Shown: positions 2,496-37,112 of the stretch, in pieces
Numbering within the stretch: the stretch's first letter is position 1
How the letters are laid out: each line of letters begins with the position of its first letter
Assembly (NCBI GenBank): GCA_964505115.1
Contig: CAZDHN010000002.1
Coordinates: forward strand, 1 to 37,112
Direction: 5' to 3'
Source: an uncultured Planctomycetaceae bacterium
GTDB lineage: Bacteria > Planctomycetota > Planctomycetia > Pirellulales > Thermoguttaceae
DNA: 37,112 nucleotides
Translations under genes and position numbers: made by a program
The notes under the pieces: generated by a model
Databases searched by the model: none
Seen by the model: the letters and a program-made list of their open reading frames with translations, nothing else
What the model was told of the DNA's origin: nothing

Positions 2496-2852
2496 TGGCC
2501 AATCTCTTATCAGGTCCGTCCGCTGATGGTAGGACTCGCGGCGCGGCCGAAGCCGACGCCTCAATCGTTTTATCGAGTTAATCGGGCGGCCGACTTCAGG
2601 TGGCGCGTGTTGATAACGGTTATTTCGCGGCGGACGGGCCAACTCTTCCGAATGTTGCGATTGCATCGGGCGGGAAGTCTCGCCTGTAGCGACTGTCGCG
2701 GCTGGTGGATATTCACCCCCGCCCCGCATTGCTTGCCAGGCGACCGCCTATCCATTAGGCTGTTGGGATATCGAGCCACGTAATCGCCAACAGGCCGTTT
2801 GGGACCGTGCCGCTGGACCGGCGCGGTAGTCCCGCCAACAGGAGCCACGAGC

Positions 2853-3899
2853 ATGAATTCACGGGAGCGCGTGATTGCCGCCTTGGAGCGGCGCCAGCCG
2901 GACCGGGTGCCCTACTTCGAATGCGTTATCGACGAGAAAGTGATGCAATCGCTGCTGCCCGGTTGCGACTACTTCCAGTTCAACGACTGGATCGGCCAGG
3001 ATACCGTCAGCCAGAACCGCAGTTCCTGGAGCCGGGAGAACGTCGATTTCATCGACGAGGAAAAAGGCCTGTTCCGCGACAAGTGGGGCGTGATTCGGGC
3101 CTTCGGCCTGGAGAGCACGCCGGCACCCATCGAAGGCCCCATCAAAACACCCGAGGATTTGAAAACCTATCAGCCACCCGACCCCGAGGCCGACGACGTG
3201 GTGGGCAGCATCCCCGAGGTGGTCGAGCGCTACAAGGGCAAGAAGGCGACGGCCACGATCTGCCGCGACGCCTTCTTCAACCCGGCCTTCCTCCGCGGCA
3301 CCACCCAGTTCCTCATGGACATGGTCGATAATCCCAAGCTGGTCCACGAACTGATCGAGATGACGCTCAGCCACGATATTCGGGCGATGCAGCGGATGGT
3401 GGCGTTGGGAATGGACATCGTGGTGTTCGGTGACGACTACGCCGACAAGAACTCCACGTTGATGTCGCCCAAGCATTTCCGAGAGTTCATCTTTCCCGGG
3501 CTGAAACGCTGCGTCAAGGCGGCACACGAGGCGGGTGCGTACGTGGTCAAGCATACCGATGGCAACGTCATGGGCATTATCGATATGCTGATCGAGACGG
3601 GCATCGACGCGCTGAACCCGATCGAACCGCCGGCCGGCATGGATATCGGACTGATCAAGGAGAAGTACGGCGACCGGATTGCCGTCGTCGGCAACATCGA
3701 TTGCGGATACATCTTGAGCCAGGCGCCCGTCGAGGAGGTCCGCCGCGTTACCCGCCAGACAATCCAAACGGCCGCGCCCGGCGGCGGCTATTGCCTCTCC
3801 AGCTCCAACAGCATCCATTCCTCGGTCAAGCCGGAGAACTTCATGGCAATGATTGAAACGTTGCGGGAGTGCGGCGAGTATCCGATTAGTACGTCCTAA
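2853..3899 (+). CDS. Uroporphyrinogen decarboxylase (URO-D) family protein, MtaA/CmuA-like
   Basis: Start at ATG 2853 (MNSRERVIAALERRQPDRVP). Family-typical stretches: FGDDYA, VKHTDGNV, IETGIDALNPIEP, VVGNID, GGGYCLSSSNSI. Confidence 0.85.
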   Translation: MNSRERVIAALERRQPDRVPYFECVIDEKVMQSLLPGCDYFQFNDWIGQDTVSQNRSSWSRENVDFIDEEKGLFRDKWGVIRAFGLESTPAPIEGPIKTPEDLKTYQPPDPEADDVVGSIPEVVERYKGKKATATICRDAFFNPAFLRGTTQFLMDMVDNPKLVHELIEMTLSHDIRAMQRMVALGMDIVVFGDDYADKNSTLMSPKHFREFIFPGLKRCVKAAHEAGAYVVKHTDGNVMGIIDMLIETGIDALNPIEPPAGMDIGLIKEKYGDRIAVVGNIDCGYILSQAPVEEVRRVTRQTIQTAAPGGGYCLSSSNSIHSSVKPENFMAMIETLRECGEYPISTS

Positions 3900-6660: not shown

Positions 6661-6687
6661 TGACAATGGGAGGGCGAGGCTACTTCG

Positions 6688-6872
6688 GGTGCCACTGGCG
6701 TCTCGCCAGTGCTGATTAGCCCGGAGCTTGTTCGTTCGCATTCCTGATGCTCGTTCCGCGTCTACCGATTTGTGGCCGCACAAGCGGGCATCCGCACTTG
6801 CGCAAAGCGACTTCCTGGCGCAACAACGAGCAAGCTCCGATCTGTATTTCACTGGCGGAGCCAGTGGCACCC
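6688..6872. repeat. Family C element C-I (inverted hairpin ends GGGTGCCACTGGCG.. / ..GCCAGTGGCACCC)
   Basis: Left end 6688-6712 and right end 6850-6872 are inverted copies of one another. The left end plus about 25 nt matches 34758-34797. Also has an internal inverted repeat CGGAGCTTG(T)TCG / CGAGCAAGCTCCG. Confidence 0.6.
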
Positions 6873-6980
6873 AACGCCATCATCCTACGTCAACCGCACC
6901 ACGCGGACCACGGTGTTGGTGCCTTGGGGGAAGCCGGTGCAAGTGACGGTCAATTGGTCGCCGTCTTGCTTGAACTTCGT

Positions 6981-7079
6981 GTTGGCCCCGTCGCCCGCGA
7001 CGGGTTTGGCTGATTCAAGCGTTTGCTCCGGCCGGTCGCAGGCGACCGGGCTAACTGTTACACGTCTTTGAACCATGCC
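6981..7079. mobile_element. Family A nested-palindrome element, copy A1 (short subfamily, left end degenerate)
   Basis: GTTGGCCCCGTCGCCCGCGACGGG ... CCGGTCGCAGGCGACCGGGCTAAC ... TTTGAACCATGC. Same architecture as 23381-23524 and 32632-32736. Confidence 0.65.
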
Positions 7080-11880: not shown

Positions 11881-12029
11881 GGCCTGGTTCAAATGCGGGT
11901 AGCACTGACAGTTAGCCCGGTCGCCTGCGACCGGAAAGCGAAGCGGTTTCCGCTAGATTCCCGTCGCGGGCGACGGGGCTAACACGGATTGTCAGATGCT
12001 ACCCAAGAAACGGTCGATTTGAACCATGC
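11881..12029. mobile_element. Family A element, copy A2 (long subfamily) with perfect 9-bp target-site duplication
   Basis: Ends GGCCTGGTTCAAAT / ATTTGAACCATGC. Flanked by CCAAGCAGG at 11872-11880 and 12030-12038. Only 5 mismatches over the 124-bp core versus 36834-36957. Confidence 0.85.
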
Positions 12030-12059
12030 CCAAGCAGGAAGTCGTTTCCGCGGGACCGC

Positions 12060-13312: not shown

Positions 13313-13407
13313 GTTAGTTGCTCCACCCGTTGGCGGGCCGTGTCGTCCACCGTACTCAGCACGCTGAAGCGTGATGTGACTGCCTCACGCTCCAGCGTGA
13401 GGAGTAC

Positions 13408-13466
13408 GGCCCTGTTCAGGCAACGGCCCTGTTCAGGCAACGGCCCTGTTCAGGCAACGGCCCTGT
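13408..13466. repeat. Tandem repeat, 17-bp unit GGCCCTGTTCAGGCAAC x 3.5
   Basis: Exact copies at 13408-13424, 13425-13441 and 13442-13458, plus 8 nt more. The csrA stop codon (13450-13452) lies inside a copy. Confidence 0.9.
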
Positions 13467-13656
13467 GATCCGACGGGCTTGGTGGCAGCAGTGGCGTGGC
13501 GGCTGGCCGCGGCTCTAGTTCCTCGCGCAAAACAACGACGTCCAGCGGCGCCTCGATGCCCAGTCGTACCTTGTCCCCGCCTACGCGGATCACTGTAATC
13601 ACGATCGAATCTCCGAGCTTGATTCGCTCGCTTTCTCGTCTGGACAAGACCAGCAT
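13450..13656 (-). CDS. csrA: Carbon storage regulator CsrA (RNA-binding global regulator)
   Basis: MLVLSRRESERIKLGDSIVITVIRVGGDKVRLGIEAPLDVVVLREE is a near-textbook CsrA core. GGAGG Shine-Dalgarno lies upstream. Confidence 0.9.
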   Translation of the reverse strand: MLVLSRRESERIKLGDSIVITVIRVGGDKVRLGIEAPLDVVVLREELEPRPAATPLLPPSPSDHRAVA

Positions 13657-15478: not shown

Positions 15479-15648
15479 TGAAGTGTCCTCCTTGGGACGA
15501 AAGGCGTGATCTTCTGGTAGGGCCCACCCGATCGGACGATGCAACCATCCGGTGCGTCGGGCAAACATCTTCCTCGAAGTATAACCAGCCGGCATCCGGC
15601 ACGCAACAAATTCCCCAAAAGAGGGTCCAGGAAACTTCGTGACGCCCC

Positions 15649-15781
15649 GGACGCAGGAACACGTTTGTAGCTGAATTCGCAAGAATTCAGCCCGCGAGCG
15701 TAAATCCGTCTGAATTCTTGCGAATTCAGCTACCAACGTGTCACCGATCCATTGAGGTTCCGCAAACCCGTTCCTGCGCCC
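15649..15781. mobile_element. Family B element, copy B2, with 9-bp target-site duplication
   Basis: Reverse orientation of B1. Flanked by TGACGCCCC at 15640-15648 and 15782-15790. Lies in the divergent gap between the PmoA-like gene and typA. Confidence 0.8.
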
Positions 15782-17693: not shown

Positions 17694-17808
17694 GGCGGTA
17701 GGGCCGCCAACCAAACCGGTGCTGCCGCACCCAGGCAAGAACCCACCCGCCACGAATCGCTGAACTTTGTCAAAAACTTAACGATCTTTGAGGTTAGTGG
17801 CATAGGGC

Positions 17809-17912
17809 GTAGCTGAACTCGCAAGAGTTCAGGTGACTCGGGCTGAATTCTTGCGAATCCAGCTACGGAGAAGCTGGGCTGAATTCTTGCGAATCCAGCT
17901 ACGGAGAAGCTG
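17809..17912. repeat. Family B variant B3: core hairpin plus 36-bp tandem duplication of the right arm
   Basis: GTAGCTGAACTCGCAAGAGTTCAG ... then GGCTGAATTCTTGCGAATCCAGCTACGGAGAAGCTG twice (17841-17876 and 17877-17912). Confidence 0.75.
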
Positions 17913-23380: not shown

Positions 23381-23524
23381 GGCGTGGTTCAAATCGACGT
23401 GTTTCCAGGCAACACGTGATAGTCCGTGTTAGCCCCGTCGCCTGCGACGGGAGAAGCAGCGCGGACCAACCCGGTTTCCGGTCGCAGGCGACCGGGCTAA
23501 CTATTGCCCACGTTTGAACCAGGC
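23381..23524. mobile_element. Family A element, copy A3 (short subfamily) with 9-bp target-site duplication
   Basis: Ends GGCGTGGTTCAAAT / GTTTGAACCAGGC. Flanked by AGAACGTCA at 23372-23380 and 23525-23533. The right copy contains the stop codon of the gene at 23531..24919. Confidence 0.85.
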
Positions 23525-23530
23525 AGAACG

Positions 23531-32631: not shown

Positions 32632-32736
32632 GTTTAGCCCCGTCACCGTTAGCCCCGTCGCCTGCGACGGGAGAAGTAACGACAACCGGTCCACCAGCCG
32701 GTCGCGGGCGACCGGGCTAACAGTCACCCACGCTTG
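32632..32736. mobile_element. Family A element, copy A4 (short subfamily, ends decayed)
   Basis: GTTAGCCCCGTCGCCTGCGACGGG ... CCGGTCGCGGGCGACCGGGCTAAC ... CCCACGCTTGA. No clear flanking duplication. Confidence 0.6.
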
Positions 32737-32759
32737 ATTATCAACCGGAGGAATCAACC

Positions 32760-34751
32760 ATGCGCCGAACGTCCATTTGTGCGGGATTGTTGCTTGCCCT
32801 GCTTGTGGTTTCCGCACGGGCCGCGCCAAAACAGGACGAACTCCGCTCGCTCGATCCGAAAGAGATACTCTCGAAACTGGACCTCGACCGGCCGGGGCTC
32901 GAAGCGGTTAAGGCCAAGCATCTGGCGGGCGATCGGGCCGGCGCGCTCGAGGCGCTGCTTGAATACTATCGCAAGAAGTACCCGCTCCCCAAGCGTGGCG
33001 GGCAGGCCAGCCGGTCGGATGTCCAAACGGCCGACGACATCACCCGGCACGTATTCAAATGGGGCCCCTACGAAAAGGCCGATTACGGTCCGGAGATGAA
33101 CTGGCAATGGGACCCCGCCGGCGACATCGAGTGGGTGGCGGCCGTCTACCGGTTTTATTGGGCGAAGCCCCTGCAAAAGGCATACCTGGCAACCCGCGAC
33201 GAAAAGTACGCCGAGGCCTTCGTCGAACTGGCCTCCGATTGGATCGCCAAACATCCGCTCCAGGACCGCAAGAAGACACACTATGTTTACACGCGCTGGC
33301 GCGGCTTCGTCTGGCTCGACATCCAAACGGGCATCCGGGCCGATTGCATCTCGGGCGCCTTCCCGGCCATGGTCCATGCCAAAGCCTTTACGCCCGAGTT
33401 CCTCGGCGTTTTGCTGACCAGCCTGTACGACCATCAGGTGAAGACCGAGAAACTGCCGATGGGCCGGATTCACAACAAGGCGGTCTTCGAGCAGCGCGGG
33501 TTCGTCCACGTACTGGCGACCGTCCCCGAACTGGCCGATTCGCGCCGCTGGATGGAGCTTGCCCTAAAACGAACCCGGGAGAACTTCCTGGCCCAAACCA
33601 CGCCCGACGGCGTACAGCGCGAATGGTCGTTCGGCTACAACTGCGCGGTGCTGAGCGACGCGGTCGGCATCATGCGGCGGGCCGAAGCGATGGGTGTCGC
33701 CGTGCCGGCCGATTATCGCGATCGGGTTCGCAAAATGTACGACTATCTGTTCGCCATCGCCACGCCCGAGCTGGCTGGACCAATGTTCGGCGACGCCTCG
33801 CGATCGATCAACGTGCCCAAGGAGCGGAATCGCTTGAGGCTCTATCGCACGCTGCTTGAAGCTTCCACCCTGCTGGACGATCCGAAATATGCCGCCCGGG
33901 CGAAGCTCGACCGCGCGAATCTCCCCCAACAGAAGAGTTATGCGTTCCTGGACGCCGGCACGTACGTCATGCGCGACGATTGGGGGCCGGAGCAGATTTA
34001 CTTCGCCTTGCACTGCCCGCCGCCCGGCATCAGCGGACACGATCAGAACGATAACGGCACGTTCGAGCTTTGCGCTTACGGCCGCTGGCTGATGCCCGAC
34101 TCGGGCTTCTACACCTATGGGCACGATCCGGTGGGACGCGCCTGGCACCGGCAGACGCGGGTGCATCAGACGCTTACGCTGGAGGGAAAGAACGCCAAGA
34201 TCAACGGCAAGCAATTACTCTGGCACACTTCGCCGGAGTTGGACGCGCTGACCGTGTCGAACGAATCGTACAAGGGCCTCGTGCATCGGCGGACCGTCTG
34301 GTTCGTCGAGAAGAAGTTCTTCGTGCTCCTGGACGAGGCCATCGGACAAGTTCCCGGTAAGCTGGAACTACATTTTCAACTCGCGCCCGGCGAAGCGCGT
34401 ATCGACACCAAGGAGCACTGGGCCACCACAACCTTCGACGACGCCAACGTGCTGGTTTGGGCCGATCCGAAAGCGCCCCTTTCGATGCACGAAGCGGAGG
34501 GCTGGTTCGCCTGGGGATACGGCCACCGCAAACCCCGGCCCGCCTTCTGCTACCGGCACGACGGCCCGGCACCGGCCGCCTTCCTCACCGTGCTGTTCCC
34601 ATACCGGGGCACCGATCGCCCCAAAGTCTCCGCCACGTTGCCCGACGGATTCAAGCCGGGCAGCAGTCGGGTCGAACTCGAGGTGCAAGCCCTGGGCAAG
34701 AAATGGGCCGTCGGTCGCGATTTGGATCAGCAGGAAGCCTGGTGCAAGTAG
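32760..34751 (+). CDS. Heparinase II/III family polysaccharide lyase-like protein with signal peptide
   Basis: MRRTSICAGLLLALLVVSARA signal. N-terminal alginate-lyase-like helical region (DIEWVAAVYRFYW...). C-terminal GHDQNDNGTFELCAYGRWLMPDSG block typical of heparinase II/III. GGAGGA lies 8 nt upstream. Confidence 0.88.
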   Translation: MRRTSICAGLLLALLVVSARAAPKQDELRSLDPKEILSKLDLDRPGLEAVKAKHLAGDRAGALEALLEYYRKKYPLPKRGGQASRSDVQTADDITRHVFKWGPYEKADYGPEMNWQWDPAGDIEWVAAVYRFYWAKPLQKAYLATRDEKYAEAFVELASDWIAKHPLQDRKKTHYVYTRWRGFVWLDIQTGIRADCISGAFPAMVHAKAFTPEFLGVLLTSLYDHQVKTEKLPMGRIHNKAVFEQRGFVHVLATVPELADSRRWMELALKRTRENFLAQTTPDGVQREWSFGYNCAVLSDAVGIMRRAEAMGVAVPADYRDRVRKMYDYLFAIATPELAGPMFGDASRSINVPKERNRLRLYRTLLEASTLLDDPKYAARAKLDRANLPQQKSYAFLDAGTYVMRDDWGPEQIYFALHCPPPGISGHDQNDNGTFELCAYGRWLMPDSGFYTYGHDPVGRAWHRQTRVHQTLTLEGKNAKINGKQLLWHTSPELDALTVSNESYKGLVHRRTVWFVEKKFFVLLDEAIGQVPGKLELHFQLAPGEARIDTKEHWATTTFDDANVLVWADPKAPLSMHEAEGWFAWGYGHRKPRPAFCYRHDGPAPAAFLTVLFPYRGTDRPKVSATLPDGFKPGSSRVELEVQALGKKWAVGRDLDQQEAWCK

Positions 34752-34757
34752 CAGTTT

Positions 34758-34916
34758 GGTGCCACTGGCGTTTCGCCAGTGCTTTTCAGCCCCGGGCTTG
34801 CAAGCTCGGCTCCAAAAGGACGGCCAATCCGGCCGTTTTCCAGAAAAGAAACGAGTAGTCAAGTTCCACCAACAAGCCAAGAACGAAAAAACACTGGCAA
34901 GATGCCAGTGGCACCC
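34758..34916. repeat. Family C element C-II
   Basis: Left end GGTGCCACTGGCGTTTCGCCAGTG (34758-34781) and right end CACTGGCAAGATGCCAGTGGCACCC (34892-34916) are inverted. Lies between the convergent heparinase and glmS stops. Confidence 0.6.
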
Positions 34917-34944
34917 GACAAACGCTGTCATACCAAACGCAACC

Positions 34945-36813
34945 TCACTCCACCGTAACGCTCTTGGCCAGGTTACGCGGCTTGTCGACGTCGCAGCAGC
35001 GGGCGACGGCAATGTGGTAGGCCAGTAGTTGCAGGGGGATGATGCTGACGATCGGCTGCAAATACTCTTCGATGGCCGGCACCTCGATCACGTCGTCGGC
35101 CAGTTCGGCCACCGCCGTGTCGCCCTCGCAGACCACGGCTATCACCGGTCCGCCGCGTGCCTTAATCTCCTCGAGGTTGCCCATCACCTTGTCGTAAACC
35201 GGTCCGTGCGGCACGAGGAACACGCTGGGTGTCTTCTCGTCGACCAGCGCGATCGGGCCGTGCTTCATCTCGGCGGCCGGGTATCCTTCGGCGTGAATGT
35301 AGCTGATCTCCTTCAGCTTCAACGCGCCTTCCAACGCGGTGGGGAAATTGAACTGCCGCCCCAAGTAGAGGAAGTTGTCGCAAGGCGCGTACTTCTCGGC
35401 GATGCGGCGGACCTTGTCGCTGGTGGCCAGCGCTTTGCGAACCTTGTCCGGCAGGGCCTGCAATTCCTCGATTATCCGCATGCCCACGTCGAACCCCAAA
35501 TGTCGCAAGCGGCCGAAATACAGCGCCAGAAGCGCCGTCACCACGCACTGCGAAGTGAAGGCCTTCGTCGACGCCACGCCTATCTCGGGGCCCGCGTGCA
35601 AGTAGACGCCGCCGTCGGCCTCGTTCGCTATGGAACTGCCCACCACGTTGCAGATGGCCAAGGTCGGATACCCCTTGCGCTTCATCTCCAGAAGCGCGGC
35701 CAGCGTGTCGGCCGTCTCGCCGCTCTGAGTGATGGCGAAAACCAGCGTGTTGTTCTCCAGCGGCGGGTTGCGGTAGCGTAACTCGCTGGCATACTGCACC
35801 TCGACGGGCATTCGGGCAAGCGCCTCGAGTTGATACTCGGCCACCAAGGCCGCGTGCCAACTGGTGCCGCAGGCGGTCAGCAGAATCCGCTCGGCCGAAC
35901 GAAGCTGCACCGGCGTCAGACGCAACCCGTCCAGCCGGGCCGTGGCCGCGTCGAAATCGAGCCGGCCGCGAAGCGCGTTCTCGATCGACTCGGGCTGCTC
36001 GAATATCTCTTTGAGCATGTAGTGGTCGTAGTGGCCCAGGTCGACATCGTTCGATTCCAGGTCGAGCACGCACACATCGTGATGCACGTTACCCGAATCG
36101 CGATGCACCACCCTGAGCGCGTCGGGTGTAATCACGGCCAGTTCGTTGTCGGCCAGGTAGACGATCTTCTCGGTTAGCCCAACCAGGGGCGAGGCGTCGC
36201 TGGCCACGAAGTGCTCGCCGGCTCCAACACCCACGATCAGCGGGCTGCCGCGCCGGGCGGCAATCAACAGGTCCGGGTAATCGCGAAAGAGAATCACCAG
36301 CCCGTAGGTGCCGCGAAGTTGAGCAAGCGCCGCCTGAACGGCCAACACGAGCGGCTGATAGTTGTCGGCGGTCGGGTCGTCGCAGGGCGGCTGCCGCTTG
36401 AGGCAGTCGGCCACCAGATGGGCGATTACTTCCGTGTCGGTCGACGACTTGAAAACGTACCCCTCGCTTTCCAGCCGCTGCTTCAGAGGCCGGAAGTTCT
36501 CGATCACCCCGTTATGGACGATCGCCAGTTGCGCGTTGCCGCCGAGGTGCGGGTGGGCGTTGTCGTTGCTTGGCGGGCCGTGCGTGGCCCAACGGGTGTG
36601 GCCGATACCCAGGTTGCCCGGGGCGGGCAGCTCGGCCAGTCGAGTTTCGAGTTGTTGGAGCCGGCCGGCCGTCTTGGTCACGCGAATCGTGCCGTTGGAA
36701 TTGATCGTGGCCACGCCCGAACTGTCGTAGCCCCGATATTCCAGCCGACGCAAACCGCTCACCAGGAACTCGGCCGCCTCGCCCGGTCCAACGTATCCCA
36801 CAATTCCACACAT
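34945..36813 (-). CDS. glmS: Glutamine--fructose-6-phosphate aminotransferase (isomerising)
   Basis: MCGIVGYVG... N-terminal catalytic Cys, two SIS domains, C-terminal ...RNLAKSVTVE. 622 aa. Confidence 0.97.
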   Translation of the reverse strand: MCGIVGYVGPGEAAEFLVSGLRRLEYRGYDSSGVATINSNGTIRVTKTAGRLQQLETRLAELPAPGNLGIGHTRWATHGPPSNDNAHPHLGGNAQLAIVHNGVIENFRPLKQRLESEGYVFKSSTDTEVIAHLVADCLKRQPPCDDPTADNYQPLVLAVQAALAQLRGTYGLVILFRDYPDLLIAARRGSPLIVGVGAGEHFVASDASPLVGLTEKIVYLADNELAVITPDALRVVHRDSGNVHHDVCVLDLESNDVDLGHYDHYMLKEIFEQPESIENALRGRLDFDAATARLDGLRLTPVQLRSAERILLTACGTSWHAALVAEYQLEALARMPVEVQYASELRYRNPPLENNTLVFAITQSGETADTLAALLEMKRKGYPTLAICNVVGSSIANEADGGVYLHAGPEIGVASTKAFTSQCVVTALLALYFGRLRHLGFDVGMRIIEELQALPDKVRKALATSDKVRRIAEKYAPCDNFLYLGRQFNFPTALEGALKLKEISYIHAEGYPAAEMKHGPIALVDEKTPSVFLVPHGPVYDKVMGNLEEIKARGGPVIAVVCEGDTAVAELADDVIEVPAIEEYLQPIVSIIPLQLLAYHIAVARCCDVDKPRNLAKSVTVE

Positions 36814-36961
36814 GGTTCCTTACCCCTTATTGGGCACTAACAGTTAGCCCGGTCGCCTGCGACCGGAAAGCGGGGCGGTTTCCGCTAGATTCCCGTCGCG
36901 GGCGACGGGGCTAACACGGACTGTCACATGCTACCCAAGAAACGGTCGATTTGAACCAGAT
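36812..36961. mobile_element. Family A element, copy A5 (long subfamily), abutting the glmS start codon
   Basis: 124-bp core with 5 mismatches versus A2. Left end ATGGTTCC starts inside the glmS ATG. 10-nt direct repeat AATTCCACAC at 36802-36811 and 36966-36975. Confidence 0.8.
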
Positions 36962-37058
36962 CAATAATTCCACACCAGAGCAGGGTGCAATACAGCGGCA
37001 AGTCTAGCACAAGGCGGCCTAATCCCGCAGCGCGAATTCTGCCTGGCCCGAATCTTTT

Positions 37059-37112
37059 GGCGCAGGAACGGGTTTGCGGAACCTCAATGGATCGGTGACA
37101 CGTTGGTAGCTG
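37059..37112. mobile_element. Family B element, copy B4 (truncated by window end)
   Basis: GGCGCAGGAACGGGTTTGCGGAACCTCAATGGATCGGTGACACGTTGGTAGCTG matches the left part of B1 (799-849) and the reverse complement of B2's right part. Confidence 0.7.

Follow-up and report, generated by a model that had tools for sequence, protein, structure and literature searches.

A copy of a repeat family lies directly upstream of glmS, the gene for glutamine--fructose-6-phosphate aminotransferase, in a 37,112-nt stretch of DNA from an uncultured Planctomycetaceae bacterium (GenBank contig CAZDHN010000002.1, positions 1 to 37,112; hereafter the window). By its sequence, the family core is a doublet of repetitive extragenic palindromes (REPs) of the REPIN/RAYT kind, here surrounded by a shell that ends in terminal inverted repeats (TIRs). 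The copy stands between a conserved extended -10 box and the glmS ATG, which would place it in the 5' untranslated region (UTR), and it is very probably transcribed as part of the glmS leader. A preliminary description of this DNA had proposed an insertion within the first few glmS codons, with the end of the element now supplying the AT of the start codon and the proximal leader. We tentatively prefer an insertion into the leader that left the native ribosome-binding site and ATG in place, a reading to which we give slightly less than an even chance.

The start of glmS itself is secure. In GlmS, Cys2 is the N-terminal nucleophile of the enzyme class and must be the first residue once Met has been removed. 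The product carries GATase_6/7 and two SIS domains (Pfam), and the same Met-Cys start was found in all glmS homologues at 74-82% identity. A TAA stop lies in frame three codons upstream of the ATG and fixes the start codon; together with the Met-Cys shared by the homologues, it secures the start at 36811-36813. The beginning ATG TGT GGA ATT GTG GGA (MCGIVG) given in the preliminary description thus agrees with the open reading frame (ORF), the homologue starts and the upstream stop, and CAATTCCACAC was found at 36801-36811 as described, covering the G of the ATG and codons 2-4.

The box at 37001-37009 is likely the glmS promoter. It is the only TGCTANANT match in the window. Of 43 related loci, 13 have the same extended -10 motif ahead of glmS, the closest loci all among them; the background rate is 0.003 per 250 nt. 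The loci with a TGCTAnAnT box upstream of glmS were L132-L138, L141, L142, L160 and L232-L235. The distance from box to ATG was 16-159 nt in relatives and 58-92 nt in the closest of them. A scan for sigma-70-type promoters across 36700-37112 reported none, within the repeat or elsewhere; the consensus used requires a -35 hexamer, and the extended -10 box was thus not reported.

Five copies of the repeat family were found in the window, all intergenic and all doublets (Table 1), and the family described previously therefore exists, with the ends described. Its core consists of GTTAGCC-CGGTCGCCTGCGACCGG, a variable spacer and CCCGTCGC(A/G)GGCGACGGG-GCTAAC, a pair of REP-type palindromes, each 24 nt long and inverted relative to the other (GTTAGCC-hairpin ... 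hairpin-GGCTAAC). The exact core 24-mer was present in at least 50 stretches from at least eight metagenome-assembled genomes (MAGs) assigned to Pirellulales, Thermoguttaceae and Planctomycetota. Across 30 aligned copies the two palindromes were almost invariant and the spacers measured 20-60 nt; REP unit 1 was conserved in all 30, and six carried a compensated CCGG...CCGG variant of the second hairpin.

REP and REPIN elements are mobilised by RAYTs, the REP-associated tyrosine transposases (Bertels & Rainey 2011, PMC3116915; PMC3337134). No transposase gene was found in the window. In another MAG (Planctomycetota, JADFKK010000323.1, locus L086), a RAYT-like ORF of 194 amino acids (2532-3116) lies between a GTTAGCC-hairpin (2449-2472) and a hairpin-GGCTAAC (3133-3155). 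The ORF matched NCBIfam NF047646 REP_Tyr_transpos with E = 2.6e-15 and 56.6 bits, below the curated cutoff of 80, and Pfam Y1_Tnp PF01797 with E = 3e-4; it also gave weak matches to PDB 4er8 TnpArep and contains an HVH motif and a Y..NP motif. An additional REP is located upstream of this ORF at 2408-2430. The inverted palindromes and the same REPs flanking a RAYT gene in one MAG suggest that the element is REPIN-like and wrapped in a TIR shell, rather than the plain element of the miniature inverted-repeat transposable element (MITE) type that had been proposed.

The shell consists of extra arms around the doublet, 30-45 nt long in the window's genome and also present in two MAGs, and ends in a 12-13-nt TIR, (G)GCNTGGTTCAAA. 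Every exact TGGTTCAAA site in the window (n = 6) is the end of an element, as are all three GAACCATG sites (7070-7077, 12021-12028 and 36811-36818). The GAACCATG-type outward end had been placed correctly in copy A2; in copy A1 it is present, one nucleotide away from the 7071-7078 first given. The intact copies A2 and c23 have GGCNTGGTTCAAA at both ends. On the plus strand, A2 reads CAAGCAGG / GGCCTGGTTCAAA ... TTTGAACCATGCC / CAAGCAGG and c23 reads GAACGTCA / GGCGTGGTTCAAA ... TTTGAACCAGGCA / GAACGTCA, the slashes marking the element boundaries; in both, 13-nt TIRs are abutted by 8-bp direct repeats (9-bp if one TIR is taken as 12 nt). Each copy that looks full-length (n = 3) has a single flanking repeat of 9-11 nt and no other longer than 5 nt, and the truncated copies (n = 2) have none longer than 6 nt. 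For pairs of 61-nt windows 145 nt apart, placed anywhere in the window, a direct repeat of at least 9, 10 or 11 nt arose by chance in 3.7%, 1.6% and 0.8% of placements, respectively. The flanking direct repeats are a genuine property of the family.

Elsewhere, the shelled element in the Pirellulales MAG CSMAG_2310 (JAUWJC01; L087, L107, L110, L119 and L214-L223) always lies within one larger unit that is itself repeated, with CAGTTATCAGTAGT-type tandem repeats and ...CTCCATCCCAAAACCGCAGTTTGTGACC as flanks; these copies were counted as a single insertion and not as independent full-length ones. They are mostly at contig ends, indicating that the composite unit breaks assembly. L228 and L229 proved to be partial only and were rejected as full-length copies. 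A contig assembled from a different sample, L238, terminates precisely where c23 has its outer boundary, which fits an identical copy elsewhere in that population.

Table 1. Positions of glmS, its putative expression signals and the repeat copies in the window.
Feature	Position	Strand	Remarks
glmS (glutamine--fructose-6-phosphate aminotransferase)	34945..36813	-	ORF of 622 amino acids, N-terminus MCGIVG (start MCGIVGYVG)
glmS start codon ATG	36811..36813	-	reads CAT on the plus strand
Direct-repeat copy 1, AATTCCACAC	36802..36811	+	covers the G of ATG and glmS codons 2-4
Proximal leader CCAATAAGGGGTAAGGAACC	36814..36833	-	Shine-Dalgarno stretch AAGGGG / TAAGGA at 36817-36828
glmS copy, body	36834..36958	+	96% identical to A2 11902-12026
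REP unit 1 of glmS copy	36843..36866	+	GTTAGCC tag and palindrome CGGTCGC-CT-GCGACCG
REP unit 2 of glmS copy	36892..36915	+	inverted; CCCGTCGC-GG-GCGACGGG and GCTAAC
Promoter-distal long arm of glmS copy	36916..36962	+	ends in terminal repeat TTTGAACCA (36950-36958)
Direct-repeat copy 2, AATTCCACAC	36966..36975	+	starts 3 nt past the 13-nt distal TIR
Extended -10 box TGCTAGACT (likely)	37001..37009	-	196 nt upstream of the glmS ATG
Copy A1	about 6974-7078		truncated
Copy A2	11881-12030		intact; between convergent genes
Copy c23	23381-23525		intact
Copy c32	about 32647-32744		truncated

The copy at glmS differs at its two ends. It was aligned by nhmmer from 36838 to 36959 with model positions 20-142 of 147 (E = 9e-37). 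Homology to the family, 96% to A2, stops sharply at 36834 and none aligns to the left of this point; to judge by where homology ends (about 36830-36834), the gene-proximal terminus is missing. The distal end TTTGAACCA is canonical, with TTTGAACC at 36950-36957; its outer 4 nt are GATC instead of NGCC, and AAT follows before the 10-mer AATTCCACAC. On the plus strand, the junction at glmS reads ...CCCAC AATTCCACAC AT GGTTCC TTACCCCTTATTGGGCACTAACA GTTAGCC... and the distal junction ...GGTCGATTTGAACC AGATCAAT AATTCCACAC CAGAGC.... The recurrence of the 10-mer at 36966-36975 was confirmed, AATTCCACAC occurring exactly twice in the window, on either side of the glmS copy. GGTTCC follows the glmS ATG directly on the plus strand (36814-36819); read on the gene strand, this is the GGAACC before the ATG that resembles a family end. 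The claimed element end from 36812 was thus upheld for TGGTTC, which matches the family, and not for the rest of the proximal end, which matches no arm. The proximal 13-mer CACATGGTTCCTT shares 7 of its 13 positions with the distal TIR, and six of these form the unbroken run TGGTTC; the confinement of the match to this run points to a chance k-mer pattern rather than a decayed repeat. Where other copies have AAACG or AAATGC between GGTTC and TGGG, the glmS copy has 11-12 nt (CTTACCCCTTAT) that form the complement of the ribosome-binding site.

In our preferred reading, the element would have entered the glmS leader some 20 nt ahead of the ATG. Its proximal terminus would have been lost afterwards; loss of an arm is seen in two of the window's five copies. 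The ribosome-binding site AAGGGG/TAAGGA, GGAACC and the ATG would be glmS's own initiation region, and the ATGGTTC match and the 10-nt repeat would be chance resemblances. The glmS mRNA would then carry a very stable hairpin of 130-150 nt, the base of which would pair with the ribosome-binding site. We favour this reading on account of the sharp homology boundary at 36834, the lack of a start codon in the reconstructed empty site and the match of only one in eight positions in the canonical register (both detailed below), the 67-nt spacing to the -10 box, the end of an independent contig at 36833, and the ordinary position of the ribosome-binding site, which lies 6-12 nt before the ATG in relatives as in this glmS.

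The spacing was obtained by removal of the element in silico: the box lies 67 nt from the ATG when 36834-36962 is taken out and 42 nt when 36812-36965 is taken out. The former value falls within the range of the closest relatives and is weak evidence for insertion into the leader. The independent contig, L131 (ERZ27315495 k141_34967), comes from an assembly of the same strain and corresponds to window 33397-36833; it stops exactly where homology to A2 starts. Other contigs of ERZ27315495 read through A2 and c23 and are identical to the window save one 17-nt tandem-repeat unit. Two of the three single-nucleotide polymorphisms of L131 lie within 26 nt of its other end, and this suggests that contig ends in that assembly mark strain-variable sites. 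There is a hint, then, that haplotypes diverge from 36834 and not from 36812, which would fit an insertion into the leader, or a conversion tract, better than the empty/filled polymorphism expected of an insertion into the start codon.

The origin of the proximal leader was addressed by comparing its 20 nt with the ten family arms. Local alignment gave p = 0.75, no better than shuffled sequence or natural glmS leaders (155 loci). The 20 nt are unique within the 1.37 Mb of fetched family and glmS loci, and no variant arm bearing a Shine-Dalgarno sequence was found elsewhere in these loci. The earlier claim that the 5' UTR is element-derived therefore holds in that the element probably lies inside it, and is not supported for the proximal 20 nt or so with the ribosome-binding site, which match no family arm. 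A/C-rich spacers before the ATG are usual in these loci. In L118 and L129, from MAGs without the TIR shell, the REP core lies 25-45 nt upstream of a gene start and is followed by a ribosome-binding site and AACC-ATG.

Several observations weigh against an insertion confined to the leader. It needs two fitting coincidences, namely GAACC 5' of the ATG and a 10-mer that abuts TGGTTC and recurs distally; a rough estimate puts their joint chance far below 1e-3, with the five copies taken into account. Element ends account for all three GAACCATG sites of the window, and a long flanking repeat accompanies all three full-length-looking copies and no truncated one. The distal outer GATC in place of NGCC is left unexplained by this reading too. 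In the predicted fold, the distal arm and the proximal 20 nt form a collinear pairing, with a weakly significant complementarity (p about 0.04-0.05), and CCCAATAAGGGGT, aligned by eye with CCCAAGAAACGGT of the long arm, agrees at 10 of 13 positions. No close relative has a leader that can be aligned to show the proximal 20 nt to be native. At the heparinase II/III gene, whose start at 32760 adjoins c32, the 7-mer ATCAACC is present in two copies around the ribosome-binding site, and a TIR-like TCAACC stands directly before the ATG, a parallel to glmS. The sequence there (32715-32762) reads ...CTTGATTATCAACC GGAGGA ATCAACC ATG.

The main rival account is an insertion into the start codon. In that account, which we hold to be less likely than not and slightly behind the insertion into the leader, a full-length element entered the first glmS codons, duplicated G TGT GGA ATT and, with its end ...GAACCAT, restored the ATG. 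Its corollary, that the ribosome-binding site and proximal leader are element-derived and reshaped by selection and that the upstream AATTCCACAC is a relic of the original start, seems to us about as likely as the account itself. We also regard as less likely than not the fuller history of a RAYT-associated REP doublet that acquired TIRs, makes target duplications of 8-10 bp and placed one copy in the glmS start codon, where the GAACCATG terminus became the new start and a ribosome-binding site evolved in the arm. The heparinase gene at 32760 (...GGAGGAATCAACC ATG, beside c32) may be a parallel case of an element-supplied start. For the start-codon account, the element is flanked by the exact 10-nt repeat, one copy of which abuts (A)TGGTTC; GAACCATG, found in the window only at element ends, is a genuine form of the family end (A1, A2 right end); and single long flanking repeats also accompany the other two full-length copies, for a joint chance of about 5e-6. 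The pairing of the proximal 20 nt with the distal arm and the 10/13 match noted above speak for it as well, and the supposed relic lies 25 nt downstream of the -10 box, within the leader range of relatives.

Reconstruction of the empty site argues otherwise. A target duplication leaves the native outer flank intact, and the pre-insertion site can thus be read directly. When 36812-36965 was deleted in silico, the gene strand read ...GCACC CTG CTC TGG TGT GGA ATT GTG GGA, with TGG before the Cys codon and no ATG, GTG or TTG in place. A target duplication would predict an upstream ATG-TGTGGAATT, whereas CTC TGG TGT GGA ATT was observed; CTCTG precedes direct-repeat copy 2 on the gene strand, and TG rather than AT stands before the supposed relic, so that the gene would have lacked a start codon before the insertion. 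The account then needs either two substitutions or a deletion that took away the old ribosome-binding site and the AT, beside a perfect 10-mer; the 96% identity to A2 makes the insertion look recent, and any such change is an added assumption. In addition, the 10-mer is shifted by 3 nt from the register of A2 and c23 at both junctions, and neither outer TIR end is canonical. The canonical TIR/duplication register pairs CAATTCCA with AATAATTC, with agreement at one of eight positions; the bases beyond the TGGTTC cores plus the repeat amount to 16 in A2 and in c23 and to 18 in the glmS copy. A canonical arm contains no ribosome-binding site, and its insertion would at once cripple an essential gene. 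Finally, homology ends abruptly and without decay, with about 12 nt replaced in a copy that is otherwise 96% identical. The lack of an ATG in the reconstructed site, the 3-nt shift and the homology end at 36834 thus speak against the view of the 10-mer as a target duplication in the first glmS codons, and the claim that the gene survived because the element end restored an ATG is unsupported as stated.

The recurrence of the 10-mer was also set against other glmS loci. A 10-mer from the start of the coding sequence recurring within 240 nt upstream is expected roughly once in 146 glmS loci and was seen once. A conserved upstream copy of the coding-sequence start was rejected, the distribution of match lengths across loci fitting chance. 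On the minus strand (36970-36990), a small hairpin (TTGCACC...GGTGTGG) has the upstream 10-mer as its 3' half and is followed by AATTATTGAT; a simple scan flagged it as terminator-like, with one found against 0.4 expected, which is not significant.

A third history is an old insertion at or near the start codon, in which recent gene conversion from an A2-like copy homogenised the interior. The middle would then look young, and the ends, the junctions and the ribosome-binding site would have had ample time to diverge and adapt. The identity boundaries at 36834 and 36958 do enclose a 96% tract with non-canonical sequence outside it, and a break of L131 exactly at 36833 would be expected if the end of the conversion tract were polymorphic. 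An old duplication, however, is unlikely to keep a 10/10 repeat while the adjacent AT is lost; among relatives, the codons TGT GGA ATT show free variation at their third positions. There is also no direct evidence of conversion, and we consider this history improbable.

An empty allele was sought among glmS relatives in genome contigs, a protein collection, metagenome contigs and by exact look-ups. No empty site was present in these public data, the nearest non-self relative being 82% identical in protein. The element was found within 90 nt upstream of the ATG in none of about 45 related glmS loci, and the longer leaders of six of them (L132, L133 and L232-L235) are without a trace of it. Relatives' leaders align with neither half of the window's glmS leader, and the resemblances of L133 (TAAGGGG, GCGGAATTGT) were not significant. 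The leader of L133, a 78%-identical relative, contains a different hairpin repeat, GTTGGAGTTCAGCCTTCAGGC...GCTGAAGCTCGAACTCCAAC, between promoter box and ATG (about 1960-2100), indicating that repeat insertions into glmS leaders recur in the clade.

A dedicated cis-regulatory glmS RNA, such as a riboswitch, ribozyme or attenuator, is highly improbable in place of a generic repeat. The element does lie in the 5' UTR with a stable structure that pairs with the ribosome-binding site, and glmS is under leader-RNA control in other phyla. The same element nevertheless occurs between convergent genes (A2) and beside unrelated genes, and it is missing from the related glmS loci and longer leaders just described. 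The sole Rfam match at the gathering threshold was a tRNA, and at E up to 10 the leader region gave only chance matches to miRNA hairpins; the glmS ribozyme (Rfam RF00234), which shares with the element its place as a structured RNA in a glmS 5' UTR, was matched at neither level. The 215-nt glmS leader has a predicted minimum free energy (MFE) of -89.7 kcal/mol (z = -3.8) and copy A2 alone one of -99.4 kcal/mol (z = -9.0), and the bases of the ribosome-binding site have predicted unpaired probabilities of at most 0.15. The predicted cost of opening -18..+10 is an ordinary 11.9 kcal/mol, compared with 8.9-13.5 in six relatives without the element. An exceptional block on translation initiation was rejected on this ground, and the opening cost, being no higher than in those relatives, suggests that any effect on glmS translation is probably mild, at most modest.

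A misjoin within the repeat, such that 36959-37112 would not be the true upstream region of glmS, is just as hard to credit: the window does end inside another repeat family (37059-37112) and the sole independent contig across glmS stops at 36833, leaving the distal junction without independent support, yet the only TGCTANANT box of the window lies in that segment in glmS orientation and matches the glmS promoter box of relatives.

The family is of a known kind, REP/REPIN with a RAYT, here with a MITE-like shell; what is notable is the combination of a REP doublet with TIRs and flanking duplications. Like published REP/REPIN elements (PMC3116915, PMC3337134, PMC3733652), it has its units in inverted doublets around a variable spacer, numerous extragenic copies, a 24-nt unit almost invariant across species and, in L086, a RAYT-like gene flanked by the same REPs. 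Its palindrome is likewise short and GC-rich and bears a conserved, unpaired 5' tag, a likeness limited by the tag itself, which is GTTAGCC (GTTAG) rather than the classical GTAG. It differs further in the extra arms with 12-13-nt TIRs in the window's genome, where intact copies have 8-9-bp direct repeats. Di Nocera et al. (2013, PMC3733652) described REP dimers that lie within longer palindromes. A literature search tied target duplications to no REPIN/RAYT paper. To our knowledge, TIRs and flanking direct repeats have not been described for REPINs or for IS200/IS605-type transposition. Insertion without target duplication, as in IS200/IS605, is not matched by A2 and c23, a difference that concerns the shell and not necessarily the REP core.

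Similarities were also noted with MITEs in 5' UTRs, such as Neisseria Correia, enterobacterial ERIC/IRU and pneumococcal BOX/RUP elements (PMC3049150), which are likewise small and non-coding, have TIRs and flanking direct repeats (here clearest in A2 and c23), form a long transcript hairpin, are, as is probable here, co-transcribed with the neighbouring gene and can in principle supply or mask expression signals. In contrast to these, the core of the glmS-leader element is a REP doublet, no related autonomous insertion sequence with the same TIRs was found in the window, and any part played as promoter, processing site or source of a start codon is only a candidate role.

An insertion that really hit the start codon would offer a clear instance in nature of an essential gene taking its translation start from a miniature mobile element, and a REP doublet moving with target duplications would bear on REPIN mobilisation. 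If the element lies only in the leader, it is an ordinary REP/REPIN-type repeat co-transcribed with a housekeeping gene, and the value for annotation lies in the family, its RAYT and the conserved glmS promoter box of this planctomycete clade. The glmS case on its own is of modest interest unless an empty allele proves insertion into the start codon. In either case, the family breaks short-read assemblies, and its spread over several Pirellulales lineages is worth recording.

Other repeats were observed in the window. A second family (799-929, 15647-15780, 17801-17911 and 37059-37112) consists of classical GTAG-tagged REPs (GTAGCTGAATTCGCAAGAATTCAG) in inverted doublets; the right end of the window lies inside its last copy, about 50 nt upstream of the glmS -10 box, and the contig probably broke there. 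The 17-nt tandem repeat TTCAGGCAACGGCCCTG at 13398-13478 has one unit more in the window than in L236, an otherwise identical contig from another sample. A third small repeat (6685-6735, 34758-34800 and 34868-34918) forms a CACTGGCG...CGCCAGTG hairpin, and the space from the stop of the heparinase gene to the convergent stop of glmS is taken up by two inverted copies of it.

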